Origin: a virus
Lineage: Duplodnaviria > Heunggongvirae > Uroviricota > Caudoviricetes
Direction: 5' to 3' (one strand)
Length of the DNA: 64,000 bases
Virus record (IMG/VR): IMGVR_UViG_3300012007_000008
Coordinates: 64,001 to 128,000 of that record
Both the position numbers and the translations under genes were made by a program. A model generated the notes under the pieces. That model saw only the letters and a program-made list of their open reading frames with translations. It searched no databases and had not been told where the DNA came from. Shown in pieces: positions 1 through 64,000 of this stretch; positions within the stretch are counted from its first letter, which is position 1, and every line of letters starts with the position of its first letter.

Positions 1-1
1 C

Positions 2-247
2 ACGGGATCATATCAGATGTATGAAATGCATAATAATGTAGAGCTATATCAGCTTCATTCTTGTGTGATTAGGCATGATGTTATGCAGGCAAGAGTAGGT
101 CTGCAAGTTACTGGTTTTGGGATATTCTGTAAAATAGATTCTGACATTGTTGATTTCGTTATTAAGGGTGGCACTGATGTGATATAGATAAGAATTAGTA
201 ATAATTCAGTGTATAGAAGAACCAAGGTTGGGCTCAGTCAATTCTAA
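2..247 (+). other. Shufflon silent cassette, 5' end outside window
   Basis: Frame open from base 2 to TAA 245-247 apart from one TAG (185-187); abuts the next crossover site at 249, like the other cassettes. Confidence 0.6.
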
Positions 248-248
248 G

Positions 249-512
249 CTAAATTCCAGATTATTGTATACTCAATCACTAACTACCACTTCAAAGAGTA
301 TTGCCGCCGGAGGGACTGCTGATACAAGCGCCGACGCAGCGAAGTCTGGGTACACACCAATTGGGATTATTGGTTGGCAGAGCTTTTCTACATTCGTTTT
401 TATGTATAACTGTAGGCTCAATGGGAATACTGTAAATTGTGGGCTTCGCAATTATGCCTCGTCCCAACAGTCTGGCAGCATGATTATTACTGTGTTGTAT
501 AAAAAGAACTAA
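249..512 (+). other. Shufflon silent cassette (variable C-terminus LNSRLLYTQ...VLYKKN)
   Basis: Begins at CTAAATTCCAG (encodes LNS); no RBS/start of its own; TAA overlaps the next site. Confidence 0.85.
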
Positions 513-865
513 ATTCCAGAATAGATGGACTACTTACATGGATAGGCGCTTCCTGGAATGGATCATCAAGAAGTATTGGTGCTAATGTCCAAGAAATGGT
601 TTTGTCAATGACTATAAATGTGGGAGGTACCTATCTTCTAATAGGGCGATATACAGCAATAGCATACGGAAAGAGTGTAACTGTTACAGTAAAAGACAAC
701 GATAATATGATCATTTCAGATTGGGGATAGAGCGTAAAAGGGTTTGCTAAACTGGTAAACGTTAACTCTGGGCACATTCTACAGCTTATCGTTTCCTGTA
801 ATGAAGCATGGACTTTTTATCCTGACAATCGAAATAGCTGGCTTCATGCTATCCTGATCCGATAA
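509..865 (+). other. Shufflon silent cassette (LNSRIDGLL...HAILIR), one internal TAG
   Basis: Site at 509-519; frame open to TAA 863-865 with TAG at 728-730; missed by the ORF track. Confidence 0.8.
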
Positions 866-1155
866 ATTCCAGAATCACGACAGAATTCAACTCATTTTTC
901 CCAGAAAGGAAAACGGTAGAACTTAATAATAACTCATATGACATAAACAATTGTATAGACACGACGAAAGTATATTTTTGGAGTGTAAATGTACGACCAA
1001 TCAACGCACCGAGGGACGGTTGTACTATGTTCCCAGTAAAAACACATTGGGGGACGCTCCAAGTGGCAATATCTTATTCGAATTCTGCTACGATTTGTGT
1101 TAGGCATATATTTGTAGGCACTTGGGGAGATTGGAAAAGCGTTACTTTCAGTTAA
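862..1155 (+). other. Shufflon silent cassette, pyocin-knob-like (INSRITTEF...GTWGDWKSVTFS)
   Basis: Site ATAAATTCCAG at 862; open frame to TAA 1153-1155; C-terminal R...W..W pattern typical of phage fibre knob domains. Confidence 0.8.
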
Positions 1156-1526
1156 ATTCCAGAATAACCGAGGAATGTTCCAGCATAAATAACAGAAATA
1201 GCGATTTATATACACGAAACATATATCACGATGGACGTAAGAATTTAAGAATAGTATCAAGTATCGGCACATCGACATCTTATTCAAGACAGCCTTTTTT
1301 TATATTTTCTGTGGCTGGTGGTGCACCTTGGGGAGCAATCATGAGAATATCTACAGAGGATAAGTCATCAAGTACAGCCTACACAAATATATGTAATAAT
1401 GTTATAACTACCGCATCCACAGCCTCTGAAAATGGGAAAGTTGTTGGAATATTTACTGTCGGAGGAAGGTATGATACGAGCATAATACTTAGTAATAGAC
1501 CTTTTTTGGTTAGCGCAACAAATTAA
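1152..1526 (+). other. Shufflon silent cassette (LNSRITEEC...FLVSATN)
   Basis: Site TTAAATTCCAG at 1152 in frame with ORF 1122..1526. Confidence 0.85.
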
Positions 1527-1780
1527 ATTCCAGTAAACAAATGATGCTAAAATCAAAAGACGTTACAATTGGTGACATTGTAATGTCGCAATCTGGATAC
1601 TTCAATATCGCCGGATACAAGCCACAAGGTATGAATCATTTTTTATTTGCCATTTTATGGACTTACGGGGACGACAGCAAACATGGAGCTTTAGGCGTAA
1701 ATGCAAACGGAAACTTTGTTTTTTCTACGGCAGGAGGAACCCTGTCATATGTCACCATAAGGTACTTCTATTACGATTGA
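1523..1780 (+). other. Shufflon silent cassette (LNSSKQMML...IRYFYYD)
   Basis: Site at 1523 in frame with ORF 1541..1780; C-terminus similar to cassette 3297..3824. Confidence 0.85.
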
Positions 1781-1869
1781 TCTGAATTGGGATTTAGTTC
1801 ACAAACCCGCCATTTCTGGGCACAATCCTCCCTTGAGCAATAGAATTGGATATACAATTAATACAATTC

Positions 1870-2871: not shown

Positions 2872-2924
2872 GGCTTTTCCTCCTTCTTCTGGATGATCGC
2901 GAGAGCGGCAGCATTGTCTACACA

Positions 2925-2933: not shown

Positions 2934-2975
2934 TTCTCGAAATGATCCAGAAGTAGAACGTTAACTAAATCCCAA

Positions 2976-5906: not shown

Positions 5907-8609
5907 TTATGAAGCAGTAGTATATCTTTCATTATTCGGCAGAGCCGCCTGACTTGTCAGCGTTTCCAGTGTTTCGCTTACGTAACCAACAACCAAGGTC
6001 AGGTCAATCATAGGCTTTGTATGCGCCCTGAACTCGATAAGCGAAGCACCGGACTCTACGTCTTTAAGTTTGCAGTATTCGATATCGTTGTCATACGTGA
6101 TCGCGTAGTTGACGACTAACGCGGTTCCTGTGTTGGGTGCTTCAGTAATCGTGAAAGTAGTCCCGGAGAAGCTATATGTGCCTGAGCTGACCGACACGCC
6201 GCCCCTTGTCACTGAAGTGATACTTGTCGGGGCGTGTGAAAGCGTAAAGGTCTTTGTGGAACCATCGCCCGTGAACGTGTCTGTGTAGTTATACGTAGTG
6301 GTGGAATCCGCCATGCTTCCTTCAAGCTTGACGCTCACAATTTCAGTCGCCGCCGTGATGTCGTTTCCGGTCGTGATAGCTTGCCTGTATGTGGTCGCGT
6401 TGCCGTTCATGGTATCCCGGTATGCATTACTCCATCCTGAAGTTGACAACGTGATTTTCTTATAAGCAATCCTCTTATGGACGCCGGAAGACTTTACTAC
6501 CTTATCAGATCCCGAAGTCGGGGTAGTATCTATGCTGCCGTAGCCAGTACCTCCGCGGGCTACAGACAGAACCCCGGAAGTAATGTCGCCCGTGCCATGA
6601 GTATGAGAACTGAGCGTCGTATTGATCGTGACGTTGCCGTCAAGTGAAGTAGATACCGAACCGGTAACGCCGCCGTTCGCCCCTGAAGCAACAGCGAGGG
6701 CGATAGTCCTGGCGGATGTCAACTTAGCGGCTGAGCCTACGGCAAGGTTAGACTGCGCAGTCCAAGTAGGAGCCGCGTTTGTACCGCCTGAAGTAAGGAC
6801 AGCGCCGGATGATCCTGGCGAAAGGGCAGAGATCGCATTTGTTCCGCCACCGTACAGGACACCGTTTGCCGTGAGAGTAGTGGCACCTGTTCCGCCGTGT
6901 CCTACTCCTAACGTTCCGGTAATCGGAATCGTTTTCGCATCAGCACTTCCGTTAAACTCTAATCCGGTCGTAGAAGCGGTTCCAAGCGTGACAAGAAGGT
7001 GTATGGTGCTTGCCAGAGATGATGCTTTTCCGGCCGTGAGACTGGAAGGATCAGTCCATGACGGAGCCGCCGATGATCCACCTCCGGTCAGAATAAATCC
7101 GGCGCTTCCGGCGGATGTAACGCCTAAAGCACTTTCTGCGTTACCGTAAACGATTCCGTACTTCGTCAGGGTTGTCTTGCCCGTACCGCCGTGTCCGACG
7201 CCAAGAGTCCCAGTAATAGGAATAGTCGGATGAGAAGCATCTGAACCATCAAGATTCTTTGATCCGTCGAAGGAAGTCTTATTGCTATTCGATGATACGT
7301 TGGCAAGACCGACAACAAGTGACCTTCCGGTAGCCAATTTGTCCGTCGACCCGGCTTTACCGCTGTATGCCGTAATCGCTTTCGGGATACCGTTCTCGAA
7401 ATAAACGGGAACGTTTGTTGATCCGGCATCCGTGTTCAGTTTGTTCGCCGATGTAGCCGCACCTCCGGCTGAAGATGACCCGGCATAGCTATGCGTGTGG
7501 TTTGCCGTTGTAGCCAAAGATACGTTGGCGGAACCATCGAATTCCACTGAGCCTGTAACCGCGCCGGTGAGCGAAATCGTGACAGCACTATTGAGTTTAC
7601 TCGCGGATCCCGCGTTGCCCGAGATTGTAGTCTGAAGCGGATGGACATGGTCTGATCTTGCGACCGTAGAAGCCGATCCTGCGGAAGCTGTCCCGTTTGC
7701 TTTAGGGGCGGTTGTGCTATATGATACGTGAGTACCGTGGCTTGACGCCGCCGCTCCTATATTAGCAGGAGTGATATTGATTTCTACGGCTTCAGATCCG
7801 TCGTAATCGTCAAGTTTTGTCCCGTTCCCTTTGATTGTCAGAGCATTAGGATTCGGCAAAGTGGTATACTTCGTGTCAACCGCTGAAATGACGATGTTAC
7901 CAGAAGCATCCGTCGTAACCGAAGCATTGGTTCCGCCTGAAATCTTGTGAGACGACCGGACTGCGCTATTCTATATTACATTCAGGAATACCGAGCCGTT
8001 AGAAAGAGCGGTTGTGGTTTGCGTCGTACCGGTTGCCGAATTGGTTGTAATATTCTTCGCTGTATGATGAGTATCAGTAAATACCGCATTTGACGGAACT
8101 GTTTTATTGAGTTCATAAGTGCAAGCCGCAGGTTTCCCGCCTGTAAAATATACAGGTTGAGTCGCTGTTCCGGCTGTCGCTGTATCCAGTTTAACAGCAC
8201 TGGTCGCCGATCCCCCTGAAGACGAAGCCCCGGCGTAACTGTGCGTATGGTTGCCAAGCGCGACAGTTGAGGACGACGTTCCGGTTCCCATGTACGCGGC
8301 GGCACCAAGACCTTTTACGGAAACATTAGTTCCGGCGATTTTTACTTGGCCGTTGCTATCGCCGGTCGCCAGGTCTATTCCGTGAGTATGATCCTGACGG
8401 GCATAATTTGTCGAACTTCCTTGAGACGAAGACGAGGCGACTTTCCCAGGGGCTGCCGTCGCCGCAGTATATTTTGTGTCAGTAAACACAGCGTTCGAAG
8501 GAACTGATTTCTCTACGGTAAAACCGTTGATAGTTCCCACTAAATTGCCGTAAAGGTTATTCAGAAACCTCGCCGCACCTGTCACGATCAAATTTCCTAA
8601 TTGAGCGAT
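5907..8609 (-). CDS. Tail fibre protein 2 (~900 aa)
   Basis: ORFs 7971..8591 and 5907..7859 joined by one TAG; G/S/T/A-rich, HxH and GGTG fibre motifs; shares modules with the giant fibre. Start uncertain (ATC 8609 or TTG 8591). Confidence 0.85.
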
Positions 8610-9337: not shown

Positions 9338-11212
9338 TTAAACTTCATTAAACTAATACGCCATAAGCGTTCCGTTGTCTGCCAGTGATGCCGAAGTATG
9401 GTAGAGTTCGAGGACGTCGTCGGGGGAGAGGGCGGTGGCGTAGATTCTGAAGTCAGAATAGTCGTTATTGTTTCTTCGCCAAGCGCCTCCAGCTTTTGAA
9501 AACCCGAGAATGACTGATGTGAAACTTGCTAAAGCCGTTGCTGATGAAAAAGATACGGTATTTTGTAAGACGCCGTTTCTATAAGACTTGGCGTTTTGCC
9601 CGTCATAAGAAAATACGTAGTGGCACCAAGTGTTTTGGAGGAAGGTTATCAGCAACCTTAAATGAGTGTTTGCGGAGGAATTATTAATGTCCACACCGCT
9701 ATCCCGATGATTCATAGCCGACGTTTGATAATCACTTCCTGTATTATCTCCTGTATTATTTGTTGTACAGAATTGTCCTTGGACTGTTGTTGCACCACCA
9801 TACCCTTCCGGCCTCGCGTAGCACCAGAAAGCTATAGTTAACTGATCAGGAGTAGTTAGAGCAACGTTTCCGCGAATATATGCCGTTCCCGCCTTCTGAC
9901 TAACGGTTGAATTGGCACTATGAACATTCGTTGCATAACTATAACGAGGAGAATTTTGAATAGTGCTGATCGAAGCCGTATCATCAACTTTATATAGTTC
10001 ACCGTTGTATCCGAAACCACTTGTGTCATAAATAGTAGTCCGATCTGTCAAAAACGGATCTGAACATATTTCTTTGCCATTTTCCAAATATGCTTCTGAG
10101 AAGTAAACCTTATATCCTGGTTTAACATAAAATCCGATTAAATCATTATTTCCATCCTGCATTACACCTTCTGCTTTACACCAATAGAATCCATTTCCAA
10201 GAGGGGTAATAGAAGTCCATGAGTTATTTGGAACACCACCGCTTCTATTATTCCATGTAGCGTAAACAACATCGTTCGTAATTTCTATTCCGTTCTCTTC
10301 TTTACAGATGCACTGAACGCTACGATAACCACCTCCATAATCAGGACTTTGATAAAGCAGATAATTATATGTTGCACCAGCACCATTAGCAACCCAATGG
10401 CAATATGTTTGATTTGGTCTAAATATATAATTCTTATCAGTTGACTGCCCATATGTTCCAATGTGACCAGATCCACCCCAATGATTCCAACCACCTCCGG
10501 CAACATTTGTATCAAACGTCGGATATGAATACGCGTTATTCATTGCTGTAATATTCTCATTCAACGGATAATGCAACACCAACCCTTTTGATATTTCCTT
10601 TACCTCACGAGGAGAGAGGGCGTGATCGTAGATGCGGAAGTCGTTAATGTACATCTTGGCATTATATGAGCCACCAGTACAACGACCTATGTATAATTTC
10701 GTATCTGTAGTGATGTTCCTTATTGACGGGACAGAAGATAATTCATAACGAGTACCGTTGATATAGAAACACCCTTTCTTTGTATCGTTGCTATCACGAA
10801 CCATTACCAGATGTATCCACTTGTCATACACAATACTATCTACGGCTGTAGCCATCCAAATTTCTGTAGCACCACTTCCATCTGCCGTACTCCACAAGAA
10901 TTTTTTTTGGCTGTAGTTCCAGTAGATGCCGAATCCAGATGACGCTGCCGCCGTAGTCTTACTAGTACAAATTGCATAATATGAACCACCTGTCATGGTT
11001 GGTATTTTTAACCACATTGAAATAGAAAAATCAGAAGTCCCGATAGCAGTAGAATATGTGGTAGCCATATAGTCATCACTGCCATCAAAATAATAGCACG
11101 ACCCGATCTTTCCAGATGTATTCACCGTAGCACCATTATTGGTGACAGTAACATCAGCTAACCCTTGTTGATTCAAATTCCCATTCAGCGGCAACCAAAT
11201 CTGAAGAGCCAT
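9338..11212 (-). CDS. Tail protein with two LamG/concanavalin-A-like domains
   Basis: WLPLNGN, W.H...V, INDFRIYDHALS and SDFRIYATALS motifs; TAG at 9353 followed by FNEV-TAA. Confidence 0.8.
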
Positions 11213-11214
11213 AC

Positions 11215-11322
11215 TCAACCACCCCCTTTCCGAATAGCGGAGGGATAGGGAACCCCCACAAATTCAACTGTCGTAAACACAGGTTTGCGAGAGTTCCCGT
11301 ATTTCATTTGTCCATTTTTCAT
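11215..11322 (-). CDS. Small 35-aa ORF
   Basis: AGGAGG plus ATG; its TGA abuts the LamG gene start. Confidence 0.4.
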   Translation of the reverse strand: MKNGQMKYGNSRKPVFTTVEFVGVPYPSAIRKGGG

Positions 11323-11340: not shown

Positions 11341-14300
11341 TTATGCAAATATGAAGTCCAGAGACTTTGTCGTACTATTATACTGCATCGTTACAGCACC
11401 TCCACCGACCTGAACGCTCTTAGTCGTCAGGACACCGCTCGTAGTATACACTTCGTTATCCGAATACGTCTTCTGAGCGGATGACGTCTGAGACGCAGCG
11501 CCGATCAGGAAAATCTTACTGGAAGTATCTGCCGACTGAGCAGTAAGTTCGGCACCGGCGGCGGCGTAAGCAGTAGATGCTGTGTACGCGGCACTTCCAA
11601 GACCCTTAACCGACACATTGGTTCCGGCAATTTTAACCTGACCATTGGAGTCGCCAGTAGCAAGAGTAATGTTATGAGTATGATCGCCCCTTGCGAAGTT
11701 TGCATTTGATCCCGCGCTTGCGGTAGTGGAAATAGCAGTGGGTGTTCCAGTGTATGCCGCATCCTTGGTTGCTGTGGTCGCCACAGTAATATTTCCTGAA
11801 GAATCAGATACAACTGTTACTAAACCAGTTCCCACGATCTTATGGGCTGATCTGACTGCGCTGTTCTCTATCAAATTCAGATAGACATTTCCATTGGTAG
11901 CCGCCGCGTTCGCCGTAGCGGTCGCAGATGCTCCAATGATATTTTTCGCAGTATGGTGCGTATCCGTAAATACGGCATCGGACGGAACCGTCTTATTTAA
12001 GCTATAAGTGCAAGCCGTGGGTTTCCCTCCTGAGAAGTATACGGGTTGAGTCGCAGATCCTGCCGTGGCGGTGTCTAGTTTGACTGCGCTGGTAGCCGAC
12101 CCTCCTGCCGAAGAAGAACCAGCGTATGAATGGGTATGACCCGCAGCAGCATAAGCAGTAGACGCGGTGTAAGCCGCACTCCCGAGCCCCTTAACTGCAA
12201 CCTCTTCAACCGTACCGTTCGTATTAACAGAGATCGTTCCGTTCGTACTTCCTGTATCGATAGATCTAACACCAGTATTAGTAACTGTATTGCCTGTGAT
12301 GTCGATGCCTGTTCCACCGGAGTATTTAGTGTCTGTATCCGTGGATGAAATGATGATGTTGCCGGATGTATCGGTCGTTACTGTTGTCGCACCAGACCCC
12401 GAGATTTTATGAGAAGATCTGACCGCGCTATTCTCTATTACGTTCAGGAATACTGATCCATTGGAGATGGCGGTTGTCGTCTGGGTTGTACCGTTTGCTG
12501 TACTGGTCGTAATAAGTTTCGCCTGATGATGGGTGTCCGTGAATACAGCGTTTGAAGGTACTGTCTTATTGAGTTCATAGGTACAAGCTATCGGTTTACC
12601 ACCGGAGAAGTAAATGGGCTTCGTAGCCGATCCCGCATCGGAATCTAACTTAACAGCGGAATTTGCCGAACCTCCAGCGGTAGAAGACCCCGCGTACTGA
12701 TGGGTATGAGTTGAGGGCGGGAAAGAGCTTGGCTTTCCTGTAATACCAGACCAAGGTGCAGAAGAAGCAGTCCCGGCCGTATATTCCCTATAACCAAGCT
12801 CATTATCCAGGTTTGCCGTATCAACAACCCTATACATAACGCCAGTGTCTTCAAGCTGTACAGTATCACCTAATTGGACATCAGAAGTGGTAAGCTTGTA
12901 CATCGCAGCCAGATTTGCGACCGAGATAAGCCTCTCAAGAGCGGCTACCGGGATTCTCGCAATGTCTAACACGCCAGAAGAAATTTCCGAAGCATCATGA
13001 CTATGCGTCTTAGGTGCAACAGGATCAGTAATCCCGTATCCAGCCAGTGTAGTCGGATGATTCGTAATATTTGACCACGGATGAGTATGGCTTGAAGCAG
13101 CCGCGCCAATAGAGGCGGGCGTGATATTGATCTCTACCGCTTCGCTACCATTATAATCGTCAAGCTTTGTCCCATTCCCTTTGATCGTCAGTGTATAGGG
13201 GTTAGGAAGGTTAGTATACTTCGTATCCACTGCCGAAATGACAATATTACCGGACGCGTCTGTCATAACGGATACATTATCACCGCCTGAAATTTTATGA
13301 GAAGATCTGATAGCGTTATTCTCTATTACATTAAGGAACACTGATCCGTTAGAAAGTGCTGTCGTAGTTTGAGTCGCGCTACTCGCGGTATTAGTCGTGA
13401 TGAGCTTCGCCGTATGGTGAGTATCCGTGAATACAGCGTTAGAAGGGACTGTTTTATTCAGCGAATAGGTACAAGCTTCAGGTTTCCCGCCAGTGAAGTA
13501 TACAGGTTGAGTTGCAGAGCCAGCCGTAGTAGTGTCTAACTTAACAGCCGATGTTGCTGATCCGCCAACTGTTGAAGATCCTGCATATTTATGGGTATGA
13601 TCCGCCGTTGCATAATCGGAAGAGTCGGTATATGCCGCAGATCCAAGGCCATAGACGGATACGTTCGCTTCCGTTCCGTTGGTATTGACTTTAATCGTGC
13701 CGTTAGTTGTTCCCGTGGCAATCGCCCGAACGCCGGAGTTTGTGAAGTTCGTTCCCGTCAGCGTAATACCGTTAGAACCGGTATATTTCGTATCTGTGTT
13801 TGTGGATGAAATAATAATATTACCGGACGCATTCGTTGTTACAGTAGTCGCACCGGATCCGGTAATCTGATGCGTGGAACGAACAGAACCGTTTTCTATC
13901 AGATTCAAGAATACTTCACCGTTGGAAAGAACTTCAGATGTATCAGCGGTACCGCTATCAGAATCAGTAACTACATTCTTCGCTGTGTGATGCGTATCTG
14001 TAAATACGGCATCAGAAGGTACTGTTTTGTTCAGGGAATAAGTACATGCTACTGGTTTTCCACCTGAGAAGTATACAGGTTGGGTAGCTGTCCCGGCCGT
14101 GGTGGTATCCAGTTTAACAGCGCTGGTAGCCGACCCTCCTGAAGATGAAGCGCCAGCGTATGAGTGAGTATGGCTTGCCGTTGCATAAGCAGAAGAGTTT
14201 GTATAGGCCGCGCTCCCGAGTCCTTTCACAGCGATATCTTCAACAGTACCATTCGTATTGACAGAAATTGTACCGTTTGTGCTTCCTGTGTCGATAGCCC

Positions 14301-17300
14301 TGACGCCTGTATTGGTGACTGTAGTACCCGTAATATTGATTCCTGTCCCGGCCGAGTATTTTGTATCTGAATCGGTGGATGAGATTACAATATTGCCGGA
14401 TGCATCTGTGGTTACAGTTGTTGCGCCTGACCCTGAAATCTTATGTGATGACCTGACCGCATTATTCTCTATTACATTAAGGAATACCGAACCGTTAGAG
14501 AGGGCAGTTGAAGTCTGAGTCGTCCCAGATGCCGTATTAGCCGTGATAACTTTTGCTTGATGGTGTGTATCAGTAAACACGGCGTTCGAAGGAACCGTCT
14601 TGTTAAGCTCGTAAGTACAGGCTTCAGGTTTTCCTCCTGTGAAATACACCGGCTGAGTTGCAGAACCGGCTGTTGTCGTATCCAGTTTGACCGCGGATGT
14701 CGCTGAGCCTCCCGAAGATGCGGAACCTGCATACGAGTGTGTGTGTCCTGCCGTTGCGTAAGCAGAGGAATCTGTATAAGCGGCACTTCCGAGTCCCTTT
14801 ACGGCGACGTTTTCAGTTGTTCCATTCGTATTGACAGAGACTGTCCCGTTTTTGCTTCCTGTAGAAACAGCCCGAACACCAGTATTAGTAACCGTTGTAC
14901 CCGTAATATCGATCCCTGTTCCGGCTGAATACTTAGTATCCGAATCCGTTGATGAGATTACGATATTACCAGATGCGTCGGTGGTGACTGTTGTCGCACC
15001 GGATCCTGAGATCTTATGCGCAGACCTGACCGTACCATCCTCTATCAGGTTCAGGAATACTGAGCCGTTGCTAAGTGCCTCGTCTGTATCTACTACATCC
15101 GTATTAGCCCCGGTGACCACATTCTTTGCAGTGTAATGAGTGTCCGTAAACACAGCATTGGCAGGAACTGTAGCATTCAGATAGTAAGTAGTGGCTACAG
15201 GTTTTCCTCCTGAGAAATAGACTGGCTGGGTCTCGGAACCGGCAGAAGAGGTGTCTAACTTAACAGCAGACGTAGCTGATCCACCAGCGGTCGAAGATCC
15301 TGCATATTTATGAGTGTGATCTGATTTTGAGAAATATGTATCTGCTTTGTAGGCAGCGGTTCCTAATCCGTGAACGGATACACTGGCAACCGTTCCTCCG
15401 GTATTAACGGAGATCGCGCCATTAGTGCTACCCTATGCAATAGAAAGCACGCCGGTATTGCTGAATTCAGTTCCTGTGAGTTCAAGTCCCGTTCCGGCTG
15501 TATATTTTGTATCGTTGTCTGTCGAAGAAATGATAATATTGCCTGACGTGTCTGTTTTAACTGTTGTAGCGCCGGATCCGCTTATTTTGTGACTCGAACG
15601 TACTGTTCCGTTCTCTACCAGATTCAGATAAACGTTTCCATTAGCTAGAGCAGTACTTGTATTTGAAGTCGCAGTTGTTCCACCCACAACGTTCTTCGCC
15701 TGATGATGCGTATCTGTAAACACAGCATTTGCTGGGACGGAAGCACCTAATGAATAGGTAGTAGCTACCGGTTTGCCTCCTGAGAAATACACGGGTTGCG
15801 TCGTTGATCCGGCATCAGAGTCCAGCTTAACAGCTGAATTTGCTGAACCTCCGGCAGTGGATGATCCTGCATATTGATGAGTATGAGCCGAAGGCGGGAA
15901 AGTACTCGGTTTTCCGGTGATCCCAGACCAAGGCGCGGACGAAGCCGTACCGGCAGTGTATTCTTTATAGCCCAACTCATTGTTCAGGTTGTTTGTATCT
16001 ACAACCCTATACATGACACCAGTATCCTCAAGCTGTACGGTATCACCCAACTGAACTTCAGAAGTAGTAAGTCTATACATTGCAGCTAGATTCGCTACGG
16101 AAATAAGCCTTTCAAGTGCAGCCACAGGGATTCTTGCGATATCGAATACTCCAGACTGGATTTCAGAGGCGTCGTGAATATGTGTCTTTGATGCGAGTTG
16201 ATCAGTAATCCCGTACCCGGCTAATGTCGTCGGATGGTTCGTAATATCTGCCCAAGGATGAGTGTGGCTCGAAGCGGCGGCCCCTATATTGGAAGGTGTG
16301 ATATTGATTTCTACCGCTTCCGTACCGTTGTAATCATCAAGCTTTGTTCCGTTTCCTTTAATCGTCAACGCATAAGGATTGGGTAAGGAGGTATACTTTG
16401 TGTCTGTTGCTGAAATAACAATATTGCCAGAAGCGTCTGTTGTAACCGACGCGTTGTCTCCTCCCGAAATTTTGTGAGAAGACCTGACGGTATTGTTTTC
16501 TATCACGTTCAAGAATACCTACCCGTTAGAAAGTGCACTGGAAGCCTGGGTTTTACCACTTGCCGAATTGGTCGTGATAACTTTTGCGGTGTGGTGCGTA
16601 TCGGTGAACACTGCGTTAGAAGGAACAGACTTCTAAATAGAATAACTTATTGCCGTAGGTTTGCCGTTCGTAAAGTATACCGGCGTAGTTGCAGATCCGG
16701 CAGACTCGGTGTCCAGCTTGGCTGCTGAAGTAGCGGAGCCTCCTGAAGTAGATGCTCCGGCATATGGATGCGTATGATCAGCTTCTGCTTTCTCCGCAAG
16801 GGCATCATACACGCCTCCGGATGTGACCATCTTAGTCGAATTCTCTATTGGCGAAGAATCCACGGATGAGTTTCCGGTACCGCCATGAGCGACATCTATT
16901 ACCCCGACATCTACCGCTTTGGAGCCATTATATGTCTTTCCGTTGATAGATAGGCTATACGGGTTCGGAAGGGATGTGTACTTGGTATCTTCAGACGTGA
17001 CAATGATATTTCCTGAAGAATCCGTTGTTACGGTAGTCGCACCTGACCCTGAGATAGTATGTGACGAAACGACCGCGCCATTTTCTACGTGGTTGACAAA
17101 CACATGCGTATTCGCCAGTGCTGTAGAAGTGTCTACGGTAGCTTCGTTTGTACCGCCGACAATTGTCTTACTGGCATAATGAGTATCAGTAAATACAGCG
17201 TTAGCAGGTACGGAAGCCTCAAGAGTATATGATGTAGCCGTTGGTTTTCCACCGGAGAAGTATACGGGCTGAGTGAGTGATCCCGCGTTTGAATCAAGTT

Positions 17301-35328: not shown

Positions 35329-36139
35329 ACCATCCACCTACTTTCTTAAACGGTATCTCGTAAGTAATCGTAGCTGTACCTGATCCTGACAGTTCAAGTT
35401 CATTCACTCCTTGGTAGAGCCTGAGCCAGGAAATATCCTAGACTGTCTTCCAGCCGATTTCAGAGAAAGAGAGCGTTTTCCCTGTACTGAGGTCTGTAAT
35501 GATACAGTTCTTACAGTCTATGGAAAGCTCGGAGATAGAAGAGATACCTGTGAGTTTCATGATGTGATCTCCGGTCGTCGTGTTCAGGACGGAGAAGTCG
35601 CCGTTATTATCCTTGAGTGTGATAACCGGATAGATGTAGCTGTCATCAACTCGGGATACAGATATCTTCCGATCAGTATTACCTTTCAGGTTAATCTTCT
35701 CCGTCACTTTCATGAACGGATAAACGGTCGTAGGCTGGAAAGTCAGCTTTACCGCCTGGAATCCGCCGCCTCCCGGAATCCATTCTGTCCTTGTGAAAAT
35801 TCCGTAATAGTAAGGAGTGGGGCCAGTGATGGTCTTTTTCCCGCTCGGTATAAAATATAACGGAGTAGAAAGTTTCGGCTCAGTCAGCCATGTCTCAATC
35901 TTAATCTGTTCCTCCTTGGTGATCAGCCCAGCGCTGCACTTGAGGAGACTAAGCGTAATCTCTGCCGGGGCTTCCAGTGCGCCATATTCATTCGGGATCG
36001 GCCTAGAGAGGGTAGGAGTGCCCCTCTGTAATTCCCGTTCAAGTCCGTAGCCGTCAGTCGAGCCGTCAAAGAAGCCGACCGCGAGGTCGTCCGGCAAAAA
36101 CTCTTCTGTACTCTTGCCGTTGTAAATAAATCCTGCCAA
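35321..36139 (-). CDS. Distal tail protein (Dit-like)
   Basis: Position after the tape measure; FIYNGKS start and LRLYQGVNEL end; one TAG at 35438. Confidence 0.75.
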
Positions 36140-49400: not shown

Positions 49401-52400
49401 ATTATTACCCTTAGCTTCAGAAAACATCATTCTTTGTATCTATGCTTTGGCTCTAGACACATCGTCTGTGTCCATTACTCGGACGACATTTTTCATTCCA
49501 CTTAGCTACTTCTGAGCTTTTTTTACAAATGTAGACCTGTCCATTTCGTTACGGGCATATTTGACCGAGTAATCCTTGATTGATTTTGATGCCGCCTTTA
49601 CTTGATCCTAAAGCCCAATTACATTTCTGCTTTGTATTTCGGATAATAACTAATTAACGTGAGCAATGGCAGGATCGGTTTGTAATTTATTCCTGGCTTC
49701 ATTTAACAGTTTTTCTTTTTCTGGCCTTTGTTTCTAAATCCGTTCATTAGCTTCCCGCAGTCTTTCCTGTGCGTTAATAATAGACTCCGTGTTGTCTTCA
49801 GCCCCATCTAAAGCTTGTTTATAGGCACCAATAGCTTTCGTACAATCATCAAAACTTTTACTTAATTTTATTAGTTCGGTCTATTCTTTACTGGTGATAA
49901 CACCAGTTTCCGATTTCATAACCAAATCCTAATATTTCTATTGGTTCTTTGCCATGTAATTGTAGTCAGTAACAGCACCCTAACGAAGTCTTTTTATGTT
50001 CTAAGGTAGTTTCTATGAGATTGTGTCTTCTTTTATAGATTGTCTATACATATTTATAGCTTGTTCTTGAATCTCGCGGATCTAATCCTGAAACCACCCA
50101 TTATCATTCCTATATCTGTCTTTCTAGCTTCCTATAGTAAACGCACTTAGGTCATCACTCATCTGCTAATTCATGTATTTTATATAGTTCTGCAACAAAG
50201 ATCGTTTTAAGTTTGCAATTGTTTTTTCATCAATGCGTTCTGCATATAATCTTTCATTAGAAATTGCATTTTGAATGTCCCAAGTGTCTTCCTCAAGTTG
50301 TTTGCGTTTATCGTCTGCATACTATTCTGCGCTTCTTGGTTTATTGCGATACCCGTCTTCGACTGTTAACGGCTATTCATGGTTTTCTACTTGCTGATTA
50401 TCTGCCTAGGAATTAGCAGATTCGGCAGCCTTTTTCATCGATTCAGATAAGAGATCAATTGATGAGGATAATTCTGTGGCTCCAGCAGTGGCCCCGTCAA
50501 ACGAATCAAAAATACCCTACATAGAATCTAGTATCTGATCCTAATCGATATCTACGTTCGTCTACAGTTTTGGACCTGGCGACTTGTTCTATCTCTATCC
50601 GAAAAGCTATTGCTCGATCCTATCGGAAACAGCTTCCTGTTGGTCTGCAATTATTCTCACGGAAGAAGATTCCTCAGCCTGAGACTATTTTATGTAATTA
50701 GAATATTGCTTTCGATATTTACTCTCACCATAGTTCTTGCCAGTTAATTGGTTAATTATATCTGCGACATCTTGCCATGTACCAATTTTAGATTTATCCT
50801 TAGCCACACGAAGGAGTAATTCATCGTCAGTCTCTCCGTCGAGACGTTCATAAGTTGGCTTTTGTTTTGATTTTTTAATCTATCCTGAAGTAGAAGAGCT
50901 GGTTTTTTTAGCGGGTGTCTCCAAAGTTTCGACCTATTCTTTTATTTTACTAGTCGTTTTTTCCTGTGATTGTGCCTATTCGTCCAACGACTGTTTGGCA
51001 TTTTTCGCTGCTTCCTAAACATTACTAAGACTTTCCCGCACTTCATTTAGTGTCTTATTGGTGAAGCTGAATTCATAAGCGTCTTCCTAAGTGGAAGTGA
51101 TGTCCCGCTCACTTACATCCCATCCAGCAGAACTTTTTTTGACTCGATATTTGTGGTCTTCCGTGTAATATTCCCCAGTACTTTTATCCTTTATTAGTTT
51201 GACTTTATTAGTTTTAGAAGCTGAAGGTTTATGTTGTTCAGTTTCTTTATCAGGCTCGTTTCCTCCGAATATACTGCCTAATCGTCCAGAAAGATCTGAA
51301 GACTGGACACCTGAAGGCCTCTATTCTTTAAGAGGATTACCATTTTTTGTTAACTATAGATCTATCTTTGATGCTGCACGAATCTACTCAAGAATATTTA
51401 ATACTTCATTGAGCCTAGATACAAGTTTATCAACAGAAGAGAGAAAATCATTCAATGATGGTTGAACAGAAGAGAGCTCTGATAAATCACGAATTCCAGT
51501 GAAAGTCTGATCAGTTAATGAACTTAGATTAAAATCTGACAATGCTTCGTATGTCGCGGCTCTGAGAATGTTTGCGTTTTTATTAGAAAATAGTGAAAAA
51601 TCTAGTGTTTTATTTTTTTCGTCTACCCCGCCTTTTGATTTTATATAATGTAGGGCAGCATCTTGAAGAGTATAATTATTTAAATCTTTAAGGCCCATTT
51701 GTTCATGTGCGTAATTAGCCCAATAAGCATTCTATTTCTATTTAGCATAAGAACCGATTCTTTGAATAATATTTGATAATTCTAAGTTAGGATCAGACGT
51801 CCCGTTTTTCTGTAAAAACGATTTAATGGCTGAAAAATCAAAATCAAGTATTTTTCCACCTGACTATATCAGCATTTTTGTAATGCCTTGTGCAGATATT
51901 CTAGACCATGCATCAAAATCTTCCTATGACGGAAGCAGGTCATATCCAATGGTTTTATAATCTATTCCATCCCCAAACGGATTAATAAATTCTCTCATTG
52001 GATGAGAGTGAACATCTGTATCAAAGTCAGACATTCTATAACCATTGTTTTTCATCCACTAAAAAATCTGATTAAAGTTAAATGAATCTCTCTGATCATA
52101 TAAAAACGGATTTGTCATCAACCCTGTTTTTGAATTAATAAATGCCCCGCGTTCCATAGACATTCCATTTCTGAATTTCTCTATGATTGTGTCGGACTAA
52201 CCCCAGTTTTTTAGAGTTTTATACATATTAGCAGAATTGTTATTTAAGCCAAGGGCAGATATTCGTGTTTCTAAAGACGAGAGTGTAGATTGGGCAACAT
52301 TCCCAACGTCAAGAATGCCGTTCTTTATGGATGTAATAACAGAACTCAAATCACTATTTATTGATCCTTCGGTTATGACTTTTGATGGCAAAGACTCTGA

Positions 52401-55400
52401 ATCATTATTGGCAACTTTGTTGTTTGCCAAATTCCATAATAAGTTTCCAGTTTTTATTTGTTTGTCATTGTTTAATAATAAAGAAAATTTATCATAAGAA
52501 AATCCGTATTCTGAATTGCCGGACAGTCTTTTTATTAGATCAATTGATTTTTGTTGATATGCGGTCTTAATGGACTAAATCTACGGAGAAGAAATGTCAA
52601 GACCGTCATAGTGGGAAAGACGGTTAATTGATTCTAATAAATCATTTTGTAATTGATTTTTAACTTCGTCAACAGCGGAATAATATATATAATCAAGACC
52701 CAAGCCTTCTCTAAAATCATAATCAGAGATATTTGCTTTTGACTTGAACTCAGGTGAAAAATAAAAATCTGATATCTCTTTGAAGTTCTATTCAGAAGAC
52801 TTTAGCGCAGATATTAACGAATCTCTATAGTTGTTAGCTAGTTCATATACCTGATTGTCCTCATAAAGATACGGAGCTTCATTATAATCTCCAATATCTT
52901 CTTTGTATTCCTTGGTTCTTAAAACTAACTGATCTATGTAATCCTATGCCCCAATAACTTTTTTGTCTAATCCCGCGCTTCGAACACTCAGAATCTCCTA
53001 TCCAATTTCCTGAGTAGTTTTTCTTGGGTATCTATTAATCCCAAGGATCATGTCACGCACATCACGAGATCCTAGATTCATTTCTTCCTGATTTTTAATA
53101 TCATCTTGACTTCTGCCTTTTGTATCTATAATAATATCTCCGGGTGCGATAATCTTATTAGGTTTGGAATCGGAAGTAATAATTGGGCCAGCGATTTCCT
53201 AGCCATTTCGCAATATCTTCTTTTGAATATCACTTTTTTGTGCCTATGACACATTAGAAACAACACGAGATAGTATTGAAGAAAGTTCGTTGAAACTTGA
53301 TCTTATTTGCTCAATGGCGGATCTTATAGCATTTGGTAGTTCTGTTCTGATGACATCTATAATAGATTTGAATTCTCCAGAAATGGCGGTTAAATCAGCT
53401 TTAGTTTCTTTCTTAGTTTCGGCAGACTATTTTTTCTATTGTGTTGGTTTTTGTTTTTTTAATGTGGGGTTTTTGGCTTCCTCTTTTTGTCTTTTAACTC
53501 TTGCCTCAGATATCTATTTTAGTTTTTCTTGTAATGATTGTTCTTCCTTCAAGATAGCATTATAATCGCCGTATGTTTGTATCATATATTCATCATATGC
53601 TTTGGCGCTAGAATAGATCCCTTCTTTTGCAGAAAATATTTGCTCATCGGTGAACCGTCTCTTGCCAGTCTAATCTTTAGCCATACGCAAGCTTTGGATA
53701 TAAGCAGCATCTCCACCCTATTTTGCGTATTTTGATCCTTTACCGGAAAACGGATTATTTATTTTTTGATCCTGCCATTTTTGAAACAACTAATCAGGAT
53801 TCATTCCGCGAAAATCTGGGTTTTGTATTTTTGCCCACAACGCTTTTTGGAATTCTCCGGCTTTTAAATACTTAGGATCGGAGAGTAAAGCCTTTGTTTC
53901 TTTTTCGAGATCATACAACTATTGTCTAGTGTAATCTTTTGTATTTATCTATTTGTTTAATATCTCTGCGATCTTCTGCTCTTTTTTAGCCAATGGAACT
54001 TCAGTGTATTCTTTGCGCGCAAGTTGATTATTTACAGAAGCTTGAGCCTCTGCATACATTTGTGCAATTACTGTTCCTTTTTGCTATGCTTCAGATAGTG
54101 CGTTAATTGCTGTTTGTACATTCCTCGCGGAGATTTCGTCAATCTGGCCACTCTATAAAGCTTCTTTTAGACTTATTTGATCTATTCCGCTTGTTTTCAT
54201 TTTTACAAGCTGCTATGCAAGTTCCGCATTGCTATTATATCTTATTGCAGATATGTTCTAATCCGTAGAATCCACTCCGATGGCTTGTAACATTTTTCTG
54301 GCGGGCAAGTCTCCTTGAAGTTGTCGAAAATTTGCATAAGCACTCGCTACTTGTTTAGCATTCTATACAATTTTGTCGTATGATTTAACGTCAAAAGCTA
54401 ATGATTTCTAAATATCCTAAGATACTTCTTCAACAGACTTTTCTTTTGGCTTAGTCAATCCTGAGAGACGATTTGTTATCTAAGACTATCTATTCCTTAA
54501 ATGAGCCTATCTGTCATGTTCCTAAACAAAATGGGATGTTACAGAATCAATAAACTAATCCTATCGTCTTTGTTCCTATTCTTGCTTTTTTTGTGCTTTA
54601 GCTTTCTATTCTTCCTGCCTATCTTTTTTTCTTTTCTATTGTTTTCTAGTTTCTTCTTTCGTTATTAATTGTCGATTTATAGGGTGTCTTCCTTTTAACG
54701 CTATAACCCTATTCATTGCGCCTTGAGTCTAACTGTTATTTGTGTCATTAAACATATCGAACGCGTCGAACACATTAGTTAGAATATCTATACCCTATTG
54801 GTCTAAATCTGGATCTCCATAAATACCCTATAGCGTTTTTCTTTTTCTAGAAAGCTTATATGAGAGAGTAGCAACATCATTTAGTTTACCCTCCCTATAG
54901 TTCCTAATATTTCTGTCTGCCTTATCTTTAGTGGACATATCAGCTCCAAGTTCTGTGTCTAGGAACTTTGAAAGCTACTAATCCGATGCGGACATAACAG
55001 TAGATAGCTATTCTTGGGCTTTCGATAATTCTCTTACTAATTTCTAAGTGTTTTTTAATTGATCTGAATACTACGATAAGCTCTTTTTATTTTCGTTTAC
55101 GCTCCGCTAGACATCCTAAGTTTGTTCAGTTTGCTTTTCCCTCGTCTGAGAGTGTTCTCTCATCCAAGCTGCTTCATTTTGCTTTCGCCTGTCTTTTTCG
55201 GCTTTATCCCATTCTTGAGCCGTTTGTTTCTGTTCCTGTTCAAGGTCCGAAAAATATTTATCCCACTATATTCGCATATCTCCTACATAGCGATGTGTGT
55301 TCTTTGGCAATTTCTTTTTCTCTCGTTGATTATCCTAATCTTCGTATGAGAACAAAATATCATCCTAATAAATATCACGTATTTCATTCTACATTTTCTA

Positions 55401-56549
55401 TGAGATCCTTGTTTGCCGTTTTATTCCGGATATTTTTTCTTCATGCGTTTCTCTGGCGCGAAGCTGCTATAAATCCTACACTAATTGAAGAGCCTTTGAT
55501 TTATACTATGGAGTATATAAATCATCTTCACTAGCGTTCTTATACTATGTTAGAGTCGAGATTATATCTTTTTCAAGCTGATCGAGTGATTTTACTTTTC
55601 CTTGATACTATTTACGTGTCTATAAATAGTCTTCTTCGTTTAAGGCCAATGCTTCCTACCGTGAATTAGCATTAATAACATATTTATCCTTGGAAACTAA
55701 AGAGCGGCGGTATTTCGCATCGGCTCGTCCTGCAAACTGCTACTCATCAGGTTCGTATAGTTTTCTGTTATCTTGCTACGGCTATGATGTTTTGTTGGAT
55801 GATTTTTTTGCCTCCTCCCAATATTTCTAACGATCTATTTTTTTCTTCTTTAGCATCTTATTTATTTCTTTATCAAATGCATCGTTTTCGGCTCCAAGAA
55901 GGGCAGAAATATCCATACCATTCTGGATAGCATCTCTTGCTAAGGAATACATATTCTTCATAGACCCAAAGGAGTTTTTCCATTGAACCTTATTTTTATC
56001 TGCATATTCCTCCATCCTTTTTGTTGTATCTTCATATATCATTTTGAACAGAGGCATATTACTTGTGCCATCCTCATTCTTTAGTACTTCGGCGAGATTG
56101 CGGGATCGAAGCAAGGCGGCTGCATCTTTTTTCCCAGTATTTGCTCCCCAAGCGTTCGCCCACGCAGTCGCCTACTCGGCGTAGTTCATAGCCGCGCCTT
56201 TATTTCCTTTTTCTGATTCCTACCTGTATTTTCGCATAGCTTCCCTAAGTGCTTCTAACTGTTTAACTTCATCTACGAGAAATTTGTTTGTTCCTCCACT
56301 TAAAGCACCGTTCAGGCCTTTTAATTGATCAACTGCTTTGTCGGCATCATTGGCCATGCCAAGGAGAGCAGCCGACATGTTATCAAGGCCAGTATTTTTC
56401 TTACCAATACTTTCAATTGTTTTTGTCAACTCTTTAAAAGATTTTTCGTCTTTCTCTGCTTGACTCTAGAGACTTTGCAGCGCAGAAAGGCCATTACTCA
56501 CATCTATATCAAATTTTATACTTATATTTTCTTGTCCACGTGCTCCCAT
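37488..56549 (-). CDS. Tape measure protein, ~6353 aa if uninterrupted
   Basis: ATG 56549 after GAGGTG; twelve track fragments share the frame; spot-checked gaps contain only TAG; TP901-type core at ~48200-49100; typical A.GT...E.G.E C-terminal motifs. Not every codon was checked. Confidence 0.8.
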
Positions 56550-61186: not shown

Positions 61187-61200
61187 CTGGATACACCTCC

Positions 61201-61437: not shown

Positions 61438-61486
61438 ATCCGATTATCCTCCTTTGTCCAGTTTTCCTGATTACTAATGCGAAAAA

Positions 61487-61528
61487 ATAGGGTCCCTCTA
61501 CTTATACCTAAAGTAGTAGGAACCCTAT
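61487..61528 (-). terminator. Terminator-like hairpin
   Basis: ATAGGG(T)TCC.../...GGACCCTAT stem followed by T6 on the minus strand. Confidence 0.55.
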
Positions 61529-61576
61529 AAATGTTTTTTATTTTTAACCGCGCCTTTAGTTGTCGGTTCATACACT

Positions 61577-61837
61577 TTAGATATTAATTTCCGAGGTCTC
61601 ATCGAGAGCCTTGATCTGAGTCTTAATACCTTCGTCGAATTTCTCTAACCCAGAAAGATCGAGCGTTCCGAGCAACTCCTTCTTCTCACCATCCGACATA
61701 GAAGAGGACATTACCTCGAAAATATCGTGGCAATTCTGAGAATCAAAAATTGCTTTCCAGCTCGGAGTTTCGGGATTACAGCCTTTGCAATATTCGTAGA
61801 CTTTTCCGCATACAAGACATTTTCTCTTCGTAATCAT
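61577..61837 (-). CDS. Hypothetical protein with CxxC...CxxC
   Basis: AGGAGG RBS; clean ORF downstream of the major tail gene. Confidence 0.75.
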   Translation of the reverse strand: MITKRKCLVCGKVYEYCKGCNPETPSWKAIFDSQNCHDIFEVMSSSMSDGEKKELLGTLDLSGLEKFDEGIKTQIKALDETSEINI

Positions 61838-61915
61838 TCCTTGTCCTCCTTAAAATAGAATAGAGGGGCAGAGGAACTTCCTCTTAACCCCTCAGAAAGT
61901 CAGGTTAGATTACGA

Positions 61916-62719
61916 TCAAACCTTCTCCTGCTCGATGTCGTCGTCCGCCCAAGTCAGGATGTACAGAGCTTTGTCGTCGGAGCAGTAGTCAACCTGCGCA
62001 TCACCAGTGAAGTCAAAGGTGCTGTCGGTCGTAAGCTCGAAGCTTACCTCAGGAGACGGCTGGAAGGACGGGAACTGTACGTACAGAGCCTTAAGTTCTC
62101 CCAGGTGGCACGGATCGACGGCGAGGCACTTAAGGGTGAGCTTCACCGTGCTCGGAAAGTCGTCCGCAGAGTTGACAACCTTCATACCGTTGGTCACAGT
62201 ACGATCATAAGAGATCAGGTACTTCGTAACATCGGCATCTGGGGTTGTCGGCGGCACAAACTTGTCATCGGTGATGCAGAACTGCTTCGCAGCCGCAGCG
62301 GAACCCAGCTTGTAGGTCTCGACGATAGAGTTGTTGTTGTTGACACCGGCAACAGAGATTGTACCCTCAACCAGACCAGTGAGATCCAGCTCAGCACCCT
62401 TCTTCAGGATGACGATCTTCGGAGCAGTGAATGCGCTCTGAGCATCAGAAGCGATGGTCTTAGCATTATCACCGGACTGACCCGCGATGGTGTTCAAATC
62501 GAGCAGGGCGTTCGTCGCCGAGAAGCTGGCGGCCTTACTCTGGTAAAAGCGCTTGATGAGCGTCCCGTTAGCGTCAACAGCGTCACGGGTATCCGCGGTC
62601 GTGTCGATGGTAGCGGTATTCAGCTGCGTAAGGGTATACAGAAGAGAGTCATCAACAAGAGACTCAGCGATCGCAATCTGGATGCGATCGACAACCACAC
62701 CGTTTAGGTTAAAAGCCAT
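61916..62719 (-). CDS. Major tail (tube) protein (267 aa)
   Basis: AGGAGG plus ATG 62719 (MAFNLNG); strongly biased codon usage, no TAG; position in the tail module. Confidence 0.75.
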   Translation of the reverse strand: MAFNLNGVVVDRIQIAIAESLVDDSLLYTLTQLNTATIDTTADTRDAVDANGTLIKRFYQSKAASFSATNALLDLNTIAGQSGDNAKTIASDAQSAFTAPKIVILKKGAELDLTGLVEGTISVAGVNNNNSIVETYKLGSAAAAKQFCITDDKFVPPTTPDADVTKYLISYDRTVTNGMKVVNSADDFPSTVKLTLKCLAVDPCHLGELKALYVQFPSFQPSPEVSFELTTDSTFDFTGDAQVDYCSDDKALYILTWADDDIEQEKV

Positions 62720-62796
62720 AATAAATACCTCCTTTTCCGTGATAGATTTGTGCAAAATAAATAAAGAGCCGATTGCTCGGCTCTTACAGATCTGGA

Positions 62797-63567
62797 TCAG
62801 ATTTCTCTGAACCAGTTCAGTTCTTTTGATGTGTCTATTTTCGAAGTATCCAAGAATCCTGAATACATTCCTTGCATCAGGGATTCCGTGGATTTCCAGA
62901 CTTGAAATCTCGACACGTATTCCATGAATTCGACGATATTGCACTACTTCAGTTCTGACTTCTTATACTTGAAGCCAGGTGTAATCAACATCGTAGAAAT
63001 CAGGGAAAATAAATAGGAAGAAGATTCCTTCTCCTTCCCCATACGAACCATTCTCTGATGGTTCCGAATATTCATGCGGTCTCCATCGATGATCGCAAGT
63101 TTTGTCTGCTTACCACGCGCTTTCTATAACTTCGGATACTGATTCAGCGCCATGCGGATGTACTCACGCATCATGATATATGTCGCCTTATCTATAAGCG
63201 TATCCGTAACGGGATCATAGAGAACATGCTCCTAAGTATCCTTTCTCATCATCAACTGAAGGTTGGTGAAATCGTACCGCCCGAAGACAATACAAGATAT
63301 TTCAGGTGGAACTGAAGGGATGAGCATACAGAAGAGGTCAAAATCATCAATCTCGTTCCAATCAACACCTAGATCCCAGAGCTGAAGTCTGTGTGTGGTG
63401 GGATTGCCGACGAATGGCGCGACGGCCTCGAAGAAATATTTTTCCCCGAAGTCAACGATGTCGCCCACTGAACATTCGTAGATAGTAATAGATTCGTTTA
63501 TGACATAGTTCTCCCCGAAGAACATTTTCAGCTTGTCATAACCACAATCAATAGGCGGCTCAGTCAT
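62797..63567 (-). CDS. Conserved hypothetical virion-module protein (256 aa, 3 TAG)
   Basis: Track ORF 63232..63567 continues through TAGs to TGA 62797. Confidence 0.7.
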
Positions 63568-63569
63568 AC

Positions 63570-64000
63570 TTAGTCAAACCGCACTTTGTTGACAACATCC
63601 CCCAGATTCGAGTAACCATTCGGGGTCGTTTGCTCGAAGATCAGAGTGCGGAGGACGTATTTATTACTATCCACCGCATAGGGTCTGTTACCCACAATAT
63701 GAACCTGAAAACCAAAATCATTAGACCAGTCGAACTCGTCCTAGATCAAAGCAGCGATCAGGTCGTGCCTCGCGATCCCGGTTTCGCGGTCGTAAATATT
63801 CTTAGGATCAGCCAGAATATAGAAGATAATCTGTTGATACTTCTGAGTCGCGTTATACCGCGGCTGTTCTGTCATCGATGTCTCGAAACAGATGAAATTC
63901 TGAGCCTGAGTCTTGACTTCAGGAAGGACGAAGTACGGAATAATATACTTACCCACGTAAGCATCCGGGTCGTCATCGGGGTCAAGGTCTGGCGCATCAA
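63570..64000 (-). CDS. Tail completion/terminator-like protein, 5' end outside window
   Basis: Open frame with one TAG at 63741; TAA at 63570 abutting the next ATG. Confidence 0.6.

Follow-up and report, generated by a model that had tools for sequence, protein, structure and literature searches.

A tRNA-Glu-type amber suppressor in an SPbeta-like gut phage and the predicted reading of TAG as glutamate

TAG codons and tRNA genes of the phage

The stretch of DNA analysed here, from now on the window, comprises 64,000 nucleotides and covers bases 64001-128000 of one virus record 174,862 bp long (IMGVR_UViG_3300012007_000008), the linear sequence of a gut phage with an estimated completeness of 88%. 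In this work, we focus on the in-frame TAG codons of this phage and on tRNA(CUA), a predicted amber suppressor tRNA whose gene lies outside the window and whose architecture, together with the conservation patterns at TAG sites, points to glutamate as the inserted amino acid. The genes of the window contain 251 in-frame TAGs, and 377 were counted genome-wide among 54,211 codons; conversely, the 190 called open reading frames (ORFs) end either in TAA (115) or in TGA (75). TAG is read as a sense codon in this genome, and its distribution is uneven, with mostly zero occurrences in the plus-strand early genes (1-60 kb) and most of the 377 codons concentrated in the minus-strand late, structural genes at 65-150 kb. 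The chief consumer of the suppressor is the tape-measure ORF (window 37488-56549, minus strand; 6353 amino acids), which is open when TAG is taken as sense and harbors 183 in-frame TAGs, equivalent to 2.9% of its codons and to 29% of its presumed Glu codons.

A first-pass annotation, made from the letters of the window alone, had noticed no tRNA-like cloverleaf and had proposed that a Glu-charged CUA tRNA must be encoded elsewhere. In agreement with the former statement, ARAGORN detected zero tRNA genes in positions 1-64000 in any of three settings, including those with introns allowed or with a lowered threshold, and Infernal with the Rfam model RF00005 at gathering score found no tRNA in the window, the same search recovering four tRNAs in the flanking loci. 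As for the latter, both programs located four tRNA genes in the whole record, all of them on the minus strand and none encoding CCA, of which a single one displays a CUA anticodon and, as far as in silico evidence goes, a Glu-type build matching the alignment of TAG with Glu. This gene, tRNA(CUA), spans 73 nt at genome 141111-141183 (L001:6111-6183), 13.1 kb past the right end of the window and within the late-gene block; it scores 57.5 bits against RF00005 with every stem paired, and is flanked by an HU-like gene and a yonG-like gene, the latter containing 12 TAGs. A tRNA-Gln(UUG) of canonical Gln build (141020-141091) is found 17 nt downstream, and the remaining two genes correspond to tRNA-Lys(UUU) (151134-151206) and tRNA-Leu(UAA) (151209-151295). 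Within the 440-nt leader upstream of tRNA(CUA), a permissive Rfam search yielded no ribozyme or other family, and promoter-like hexamers were no commoner than expected by chance.

Other frames of the window are also open only with TAG as sense, namely three consecutive giant ORFs at window 11341-35403 on the minus strand, with 3960 amino acids and 7 TAGs (11341-23223), 2483 amino acids and 5 TAGs (23712-31163), and 1407 amino acids and 10 in-frame TAGs (31180-35403); the standard code splits the largest into five same-frame pieces, and an IMG/VR scan for close relatives using the 1407-amino acid protein gave no match. In some ORFs, the sole TAG lies within the final 2-6 codons (e.g., residue 621/626; window 9338-11218, minus strand, and genome 29826-30410, plus strand), a position at which it could end such proteins before the suppressor is made, with a short tail added afterwards. 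Directly upstream of tRNA-Leu(UAA) and tRNA-Lys(UUU), genes for a T4 Rnl1-type RNA ligase and a kinase/HD-phosphatase were identified (genome 151366-153517, L001:16366-18517, minus strand), both devoid of TAG. By analogy, this pair resembles a module for tRNA repair such as Pnkp/Rnl1 of T4, and tRNA-Lys, beside which it sits, is the usual target of anticodon nucleases.

Architecture and conservation of tRNA(CUA)

When the 86-nt stretch with the tRNA was compared by BLAST with three Lachnospiraceae genomes, just chance matches of 14-15 nt were returned; therefore, all 60 tRNAs of the complete Lachnospiraceae genome G001, which carries a related standard-code prophage and served as a stand-in host, were extracted instead with RF00005 and ARAGORN, and none of them had a CUA anticodon. 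Raw pairwise identity was discarded as a test of parentage, since it gave 47-48 matches to Glu or Gln tRNAs alike, and class-defining architecture and an anticodon-masked tree were used in its place. The tRNA-Glu species of G001 display a D arm of 16 nt, a variable loop of 4 nt, G2.U71 (UUC) or G2-C71 (CUC), C3-G70, a 1-72 pair that is G-C or G.U, and A or G at position 73. In turn, tRNA-Gln has a D arm of 15 nt, a variable loop of 5 nt, G2-C71, G3-C70, a weak 1-72 pair (U-A or A-U) and G73.

The acceptor stem of tRNA(CUA) consists of C1-G72, G2.U71 and C3-G70, followed by A73, and its variable loop AATC, 4 nt long, is the same as that of the G001 tRNA-Glu(CUC); this loop measures 4 nt in all five distinct Glu tRNAs compared and 5 nt in most Gln tRNAs. 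The anticodon loop, CUCUAAA, keeps C34 and U35 and carries A36, as any amber suppressor needs, and G26 is common to tRNA(CUA) and tRNA-Glu. With a 3-bp D stem and the D loop AAGCGGTCTAA, its D arm reaches 17 nt, longer than that of either host class due to extra bases of the position-20a type, seen as a two-base insertion in the Infernal alignment. None of the Gln features (weak 1-72, G2-C71, G3-C70, G73, 5-nt variable loop) is present in tRNA(CUA), whereas the phage's own tRNA-Gln displays the full set, including a mismatched 1-72 pair, as does the host tRNA-Gln. In the anticodon-masked tree, which is small and to be read as indicative only, the suppressor and five similar phage CUA tRNAs group with tRNA-Glu, and a Gln-type CUA tRNA groups with tRNA-Gln. 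By these sequence features, tRNA(CUA) is assigned a tRNA-Glu and not a tRNA-Gln architecture. This favors the derivation from tRNA-Glu put forward in the first-pass annotation, although not by the one change at position 36 envisaged there, as A38 replaces the C38 of tRNA-Glu, the D loop has gained bases, pairs 1-72 and 11-24 have their bases swapped, and divergence extends to all stems.

Homologs of tRNA(CUA) were found by pattern scans of IMG/VR and metagenomes. Across six Glu-type CUA tRNAs from phage contigs, 120/120 pair cells were standard and 16/20 pairs showed changes on both sides, a pattern to which neither shuffles nor 3' partners shifted by 1-3 columns came close. The closest homolog, with an identical D arm, belongs to G004, a complete 142-kb TAG-recoded phage with terminal repeats. 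The gene is thus predicted to be functional and conserved, and it looks like a member of an old phage tRNA lineage, common to at least one other phage clade. Further Glu-type CUA tRNAs with a 4-nt variable loop were found in the IMG/VR contigs L061, L067, L079, L071 and L083; CCA is encoded by some of them, and their D arms follow the form GTC-AAGCGGTT(T)AAG-AC. Contig L115, listed as 174,889 bp, was rejected as independent confirmation, being identical to the phage genome over 22.7 kb.

As side observations on the genomes surveyed, the tRNA complement of G004 (L092-L099; 32% G+C) amounts to 33 genes, among them the suppressor and a tRNA-Glu(CUC) but no tRNA-Glu(UUC), with coordinates of note at 8216-8292, 9936-10007 and 141051-141126, and two of its tRNAs are listed by ARAGORN with four-base anticodons (tttg, gcat). 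The 255-kb non-recoded provirus G008 (L102-L114) harbors a Gln-type tRNA(CUA) at 18373-18447, and the 45 other tRNAs of this provirus lie on the other strand.

The amino acid at TAG sites

TAG was translated as X in the four independent amino acid tests, so that no answer was presupposed. The HNH/Vsr-like homing endonuclease (window 36205-37416, minus strand; 403 amino acids; PHROG 559, E = 2.6e-62) has 12 in-frame TAGs, one of which, at residue 344 (window 36385-36387, minus strand), lies in the motif I-x-FDG-x-H-H, in a column occupied by Glu in 119/119 homologs. Similarly, a TAG of the terminase large subunit corresponds to the residue after the Walker-B Asp (VIFD-x-CGF), where Glu is found in 79/79 homologs. 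The Walker-B assignment is based on the PHROG terminase match and on motif spacing, Walker A being located ~110 residues upstream of Walker B in full-length relatives; neither the terminase nor a full-length homolog had a match in sequence searches of the PDB. In ASCE ATPases, Gln in place of the Walker-B Glu is the classic hydrolysis-dead mutant.

The terminase gene itself seems split (genome 136176-139748, L001:1176-4748, minus strand): its 486-amino acid ORF starts just before Walker B, homologs have ~190 more N-terminal residues, including Walker A, and an ORF of 375 amino acids with LAGLIDADG and sigma-70-region-4 domains lies between it and an upstream ORF of 232 amino acids, likely reflecting an intron or intein arrangement.

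The 906-amino acid YonO-like protein, with 12 TAGs, was compared with 119 full-length homologs, and 7 of the 12 columns are mainly acidic (E 115, D 111, D 105, E 89, E 58, E 56, and D 54 with E 37). The Q minority in the TAG columns is centred on close relatives whose database translations used table 15, and the copy of this phage's protein in the public protein collection (P0002) carries Q at all 12 sites.

Furthermore, codon-by-codon alignments were built with L008-L010, three recoded sibling contigs that can be translated only if TAG=Q is allowed. TAG occurred in one or more genomes at 137 aligned sites; apart from TAG, 64 of these contained only GAA/GAG and 3 only CAG, and sibling TAGs were placed opposite phage E at 60% of sites and opposite phage Q at 2%. 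A leave-one-codon-out control on these alignments called 58/58 sense codons correctly, CAG and CAA included, and the same procedure called TAG as Glu, with a log-likelihood of -396.8 versus -603.0 for Asp and -648.6 for Gln. This control took the place of G008, which had been considered as a positive control for TAG=Gln and was dropped as it is not TAG-recoded. TAG also scored as Glu in G004 (-136.4 versus -197.8 for Gln), where GAA is its sole partner at 22 sites and CAA at 7. With respect to codon context, the base 3' of TAG follows a GAG-like pattern, unlike that found after stop codons, and in regions richer in TAG the share of GAG is 1.8% and 1.6% instead of 2.8%, CAG not being depleted; codon usage by itself is no more than suggestive of TAG = Glu. 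Taken together, these comparisons show TAG sites behaving, at the sequence level, as Glu sites.

The decoding scheme, its alternatives and its relatives

We consider it probable that the phage reads UAG with its own tRNA(CUA), a member of the tRNA-Glu lineage that would be charged with Glu by the glutamyl-tRNA synthetase (GluRS) of the host, a charging inferred from the behavior of the TAG sites and the Glu-type architecture. According to this scheme, tRNA(CUA) is probably co-transcribed with tRNA-Gln(UUG), just upstream of the yonG-like gene, and, the transcript having no CCA, the host would have to process it and add this end. The ordinary host GluRS would then charge it with glutamate, given that the tRNA-Glu body is kept (4-nt variable loop without nucleotide 47, enlarged D loop, G2.U71, C3-G70, C34, U35), and glutaminyl-tRNA synthetase (GlnRS) should reject it because of its strong C1-G72 pair, its A73 and the presence of neither G2-C71 nor G3-C70. 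Following Yarus's 'extended anticodon' rule, A37-A38 would suit an anticodon ending in A36 and should aid the competition with host release factor 1 (RF1). Stop-reading tRNA-Glu bodies are said to remain substrates of GluRS, and anticodon-arm changes, including those at positions 37-38, reportedly raise suppression efficiency. However, the laboratory tRNA-Glu suppressors of E. coli are engineered and inefficient, whereas that of the phage is natural, kept across phage clades and faced with hundreds of codons.

The first-pass annotation had also anticipated that a phage GluRS or an RF2-like release factor may accompany the tRNA. Neither was found in the record, of an estimated 88% completeness, where the release-factor domains PF00472 and PF03462 and the GluRS/GlnRS catalytic domain PF00749 gave no match, all of them matching in control genomes; hence, tRNA(CUA) is the sole recoding component found there. 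An accessory release factor or synthetase accompanies only some of the known phage recoding systems. The three Lachnospiraceae genomes with related prophages each encode a true GlnRS (~712 bits versus a cut-off of 426), one GluRS and GatB.

Several observations weigh against the proposed scheme. The 1-72 pair of tRNA(CUA) is C-G, in place of the G-C or G.U of host tRNA-Glu, with G at position 1 in its relatives L091 and L061, and its 11-24 pair is A-U instead of the U-A of host tRNA-Glu. In E. coli, GluRS uses U11-A24 as an identity element; A11-U24 recurs in the G004 and L091 homologs, and U11-A24 is found in the suppressor tRNAs of L061, L071 and L083. Moreover, GlnRS and LysRS of E. coli also read C34 and U35, making some mischarging possible. 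The GluRS of G001, the one genome examined in this regard, keeps Arg at the position of Arg358 of Thermus thermophilus GluRS, a residue that reportedly reads C36 in discriminating enzymes, and is accordingly predicted to be of the discriminating type. The hosts considered here are those of standard-code relatives, used as stand-ins. Variation (N, K, S, T) is seen in several of the TAG columns, and no CUA tRNA occurs at the syntenic site of the siblings L008-L010, which are fragments of only 11-19 kb; their suppressor must lie elsewhere or be absent. That site is occupied by tRNA-Gln(UUG), followed in two of them by tRNA-Asn(GUU) (L008:15010-15173, L009:12054-12127, L010:11428-11590).

One alternative to glutamate is the standard code 15, in which host GlnRS would charge tRNA(CUA) and TAG would mean glutamine. 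This is the translation given by the public protein collection (P0002), and the literature describes only TAG->Gln for phages whose TAG code differs from that of the host; in addition, the suppressor gene adjoins a tRNA-Gln gene, CAG or CAA is found opposite a minority of the TAG sites, and C34 and U35 are reportedly GlnRS contacts in E. coli. Nevertheless, TAG falls on invariant catalytic Glu residues in both the endonuclease and the terminase (119/119 and 79/79), Q lies ~250 log-likelihood units below E in a test whose control was right for every sense codon, and the molecule has no weak 1-72 pair, G2-C71, G3-C70, G73 or 5-nt variable loop, so that we regard glutamine decoding as very unlikely. 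The second route of the first-pass annotation would lead to the same product as our scheme, Glu at TAG, through a tRNA-Gln-like suppressor glutamylated by a non-discriminating GluRS and left unamidated by GatCAB. GatB is present in the Lachnospiraceae genomes with related prophages, and both the C1-G72 pair and the enlarged D loop of tRNA(CUA) are features said to make GatCAB reject a tRNA. However, this route finds no support, since tRNA(CUA) is Gln-like in no class-defining feature and the presumed non-discriminating GluRS is not what the examined hosts have, as indicated by the true GlnRS of the related-prophage genomes and the Arg at the Arg358-equivalent of the single GluRS of G001, making it a highly improbable explanation.

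If the suppressor received Glu in some cases and Gln (or Lys) in others, TAG sites would yield mixed proteins. Such ambiguity is consistent with the Q or K found in some TAG columns and with the loss of one GluRS contact imposed by A36, and tRNA-Glu-derived amber suppressors of E. coli reportedly inserted mainly Glu and some Gln. Conversely, TAG occupies catalytic Glu positions of essential proteins and 29% of the presumed Glu codons of the tape measure, which argues for reliable decoding, and its substitution profile is close to that of GAA/GAG; mixed decoding is thus considered unlikely. Finally, UAG might be read by something other than tRNA(CUA), either a host suppressor or near-cognate read-through after RF1 is disabled, as could be suggested by the sibling recoded contigs with no CUA tRNA at the syntenic site and by recoded phages in the literature that have no suppressor tRNA at all. 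This seems extremely improbable to us, considering that no CUA anticodon exists among the 60 stand-in host tRNAs, that tRNA(CUA) is intact, with compensatory changes relative to its homologs from other TAG-recoded phages, and that 377 in-frame TAGs, 183 of them in one gene, demand efficient decoding; moreover, the residues usually incorporated at UAG by near-cognate read-through are Gln, Tyr or Lys rather than Glu.

Regarding its relatives, sequence similarity identifies the phage lineage as SPbeta-like, with Enterocloster bolteae phages as its closest named relatives. Bacillus phage SPbeta, the SPbeta-like prophages of Lachnospiraceae and the Enterocloster phages share with it a gene set and its order, including YonV, the YonO-like RNA polymerase, YonJ, the HU-like protein, YonG, TerL and YomU. 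They differ in using the standard code: the homolog genes P0013 and P0025 (L004-L007) translate under table 11, and no CUA tRNA was found in these stretches. By Megablast, neither the tape-measure region nor the DNA of G004 showed similarity to GenBank phages. The YonO-like gene (genome 145667-148387, L001:10667-13387, minus strand) occupies the position of SPbeta yonO, which encodes the late RNA polymerase, and its homolog in an Enterocloster phage is annotated as an RNA polymerase. If this function holds, its 12 TAGs would make late transcription dependent on the suppressor, constituting a possible gate.

The recoding scheme itself, i.e., TAG in late genes and a phage-encoded suppressor tRNA, is known, and what differs here is the amino acid and the parent tRNA. 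Where the phage code departs from that of the host, Borges et al. (bioRxiv 10.1101/2021.08.26.457843) described only TAG->Gln and TGA->Trp. Code-15 phages such as the crAss-like, Lak, Garnet and Topaz phages (Borges et al.; Peters et al., PMC9523058) likewise use TAG as sense in late and structural genes, with early genes nearly free of it, and also combine a phage CUA tRNA with a standard-code host and a reliance on host synthetases; unlike them, the phage studied here would insert Glu and not Gln, with a tRNA-Glu instead of a tRNA-Gln body, and no RF2 gene was found. A further likeness is found in phAss-1 of the proposed Phassvirus (136-kb gut phages, PMC10607447), large phages with Clostridia-type hosts that are related to Enterocloster phages, carry TAG in TerL, tape measure and portal genes, and encode CUA tRNAs with no dedicated synthetase. 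In that report, TAG was assigned to Gln from TerL alignments and tRNAscan-SE, in contrast to the TerL TAG described here, which lies on the Walker-B Glu. Outside the phages, the peritrich ciliate code (NCBI table 30) also reads TAG as Glu by means of a tRNA-Glu-like suppressor, although it is eukaryotic, genome-wide and extends to TAA, which in this phage is the stop codon of 115 out of 190 ORFs. For phages, literature searches found no description of TAG->Glu.

With the integration of these findings, we lean towards a broader reading, in which a hitherto undescribed TAG = Glu code is used throughout a radiation of SPbeta-like phages that infect Clostridia of gut and rumen, based on an old tRNA-Glu-derived phage suppressor and a discriminating-type host GluRS, the tRNA acting as the master gate of late expression, as both the YonO-like polymerase and the terminase Glu need it. 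If TAG->Glu with a tRNA-Glu-type suppressor is true, it would add one more natural genetic code to those of bacterial viruses, extend to GluRS the recruitment of host synthetases for recoding so far attributed to GlnRS and TrpRS, and supply Gram-positive hosts with a naturally occurring amber suppressor that inserts Glu. It would also imply that public collections, which apply table 15, systematically mistranslate these abundant gut phages with Q in place of E, even at catalytic residues. With the tRNA, the candidate synthetases and hundreds of diagnostic peptides now defined, the assignment of TAG to glutamate becomes directly testable.

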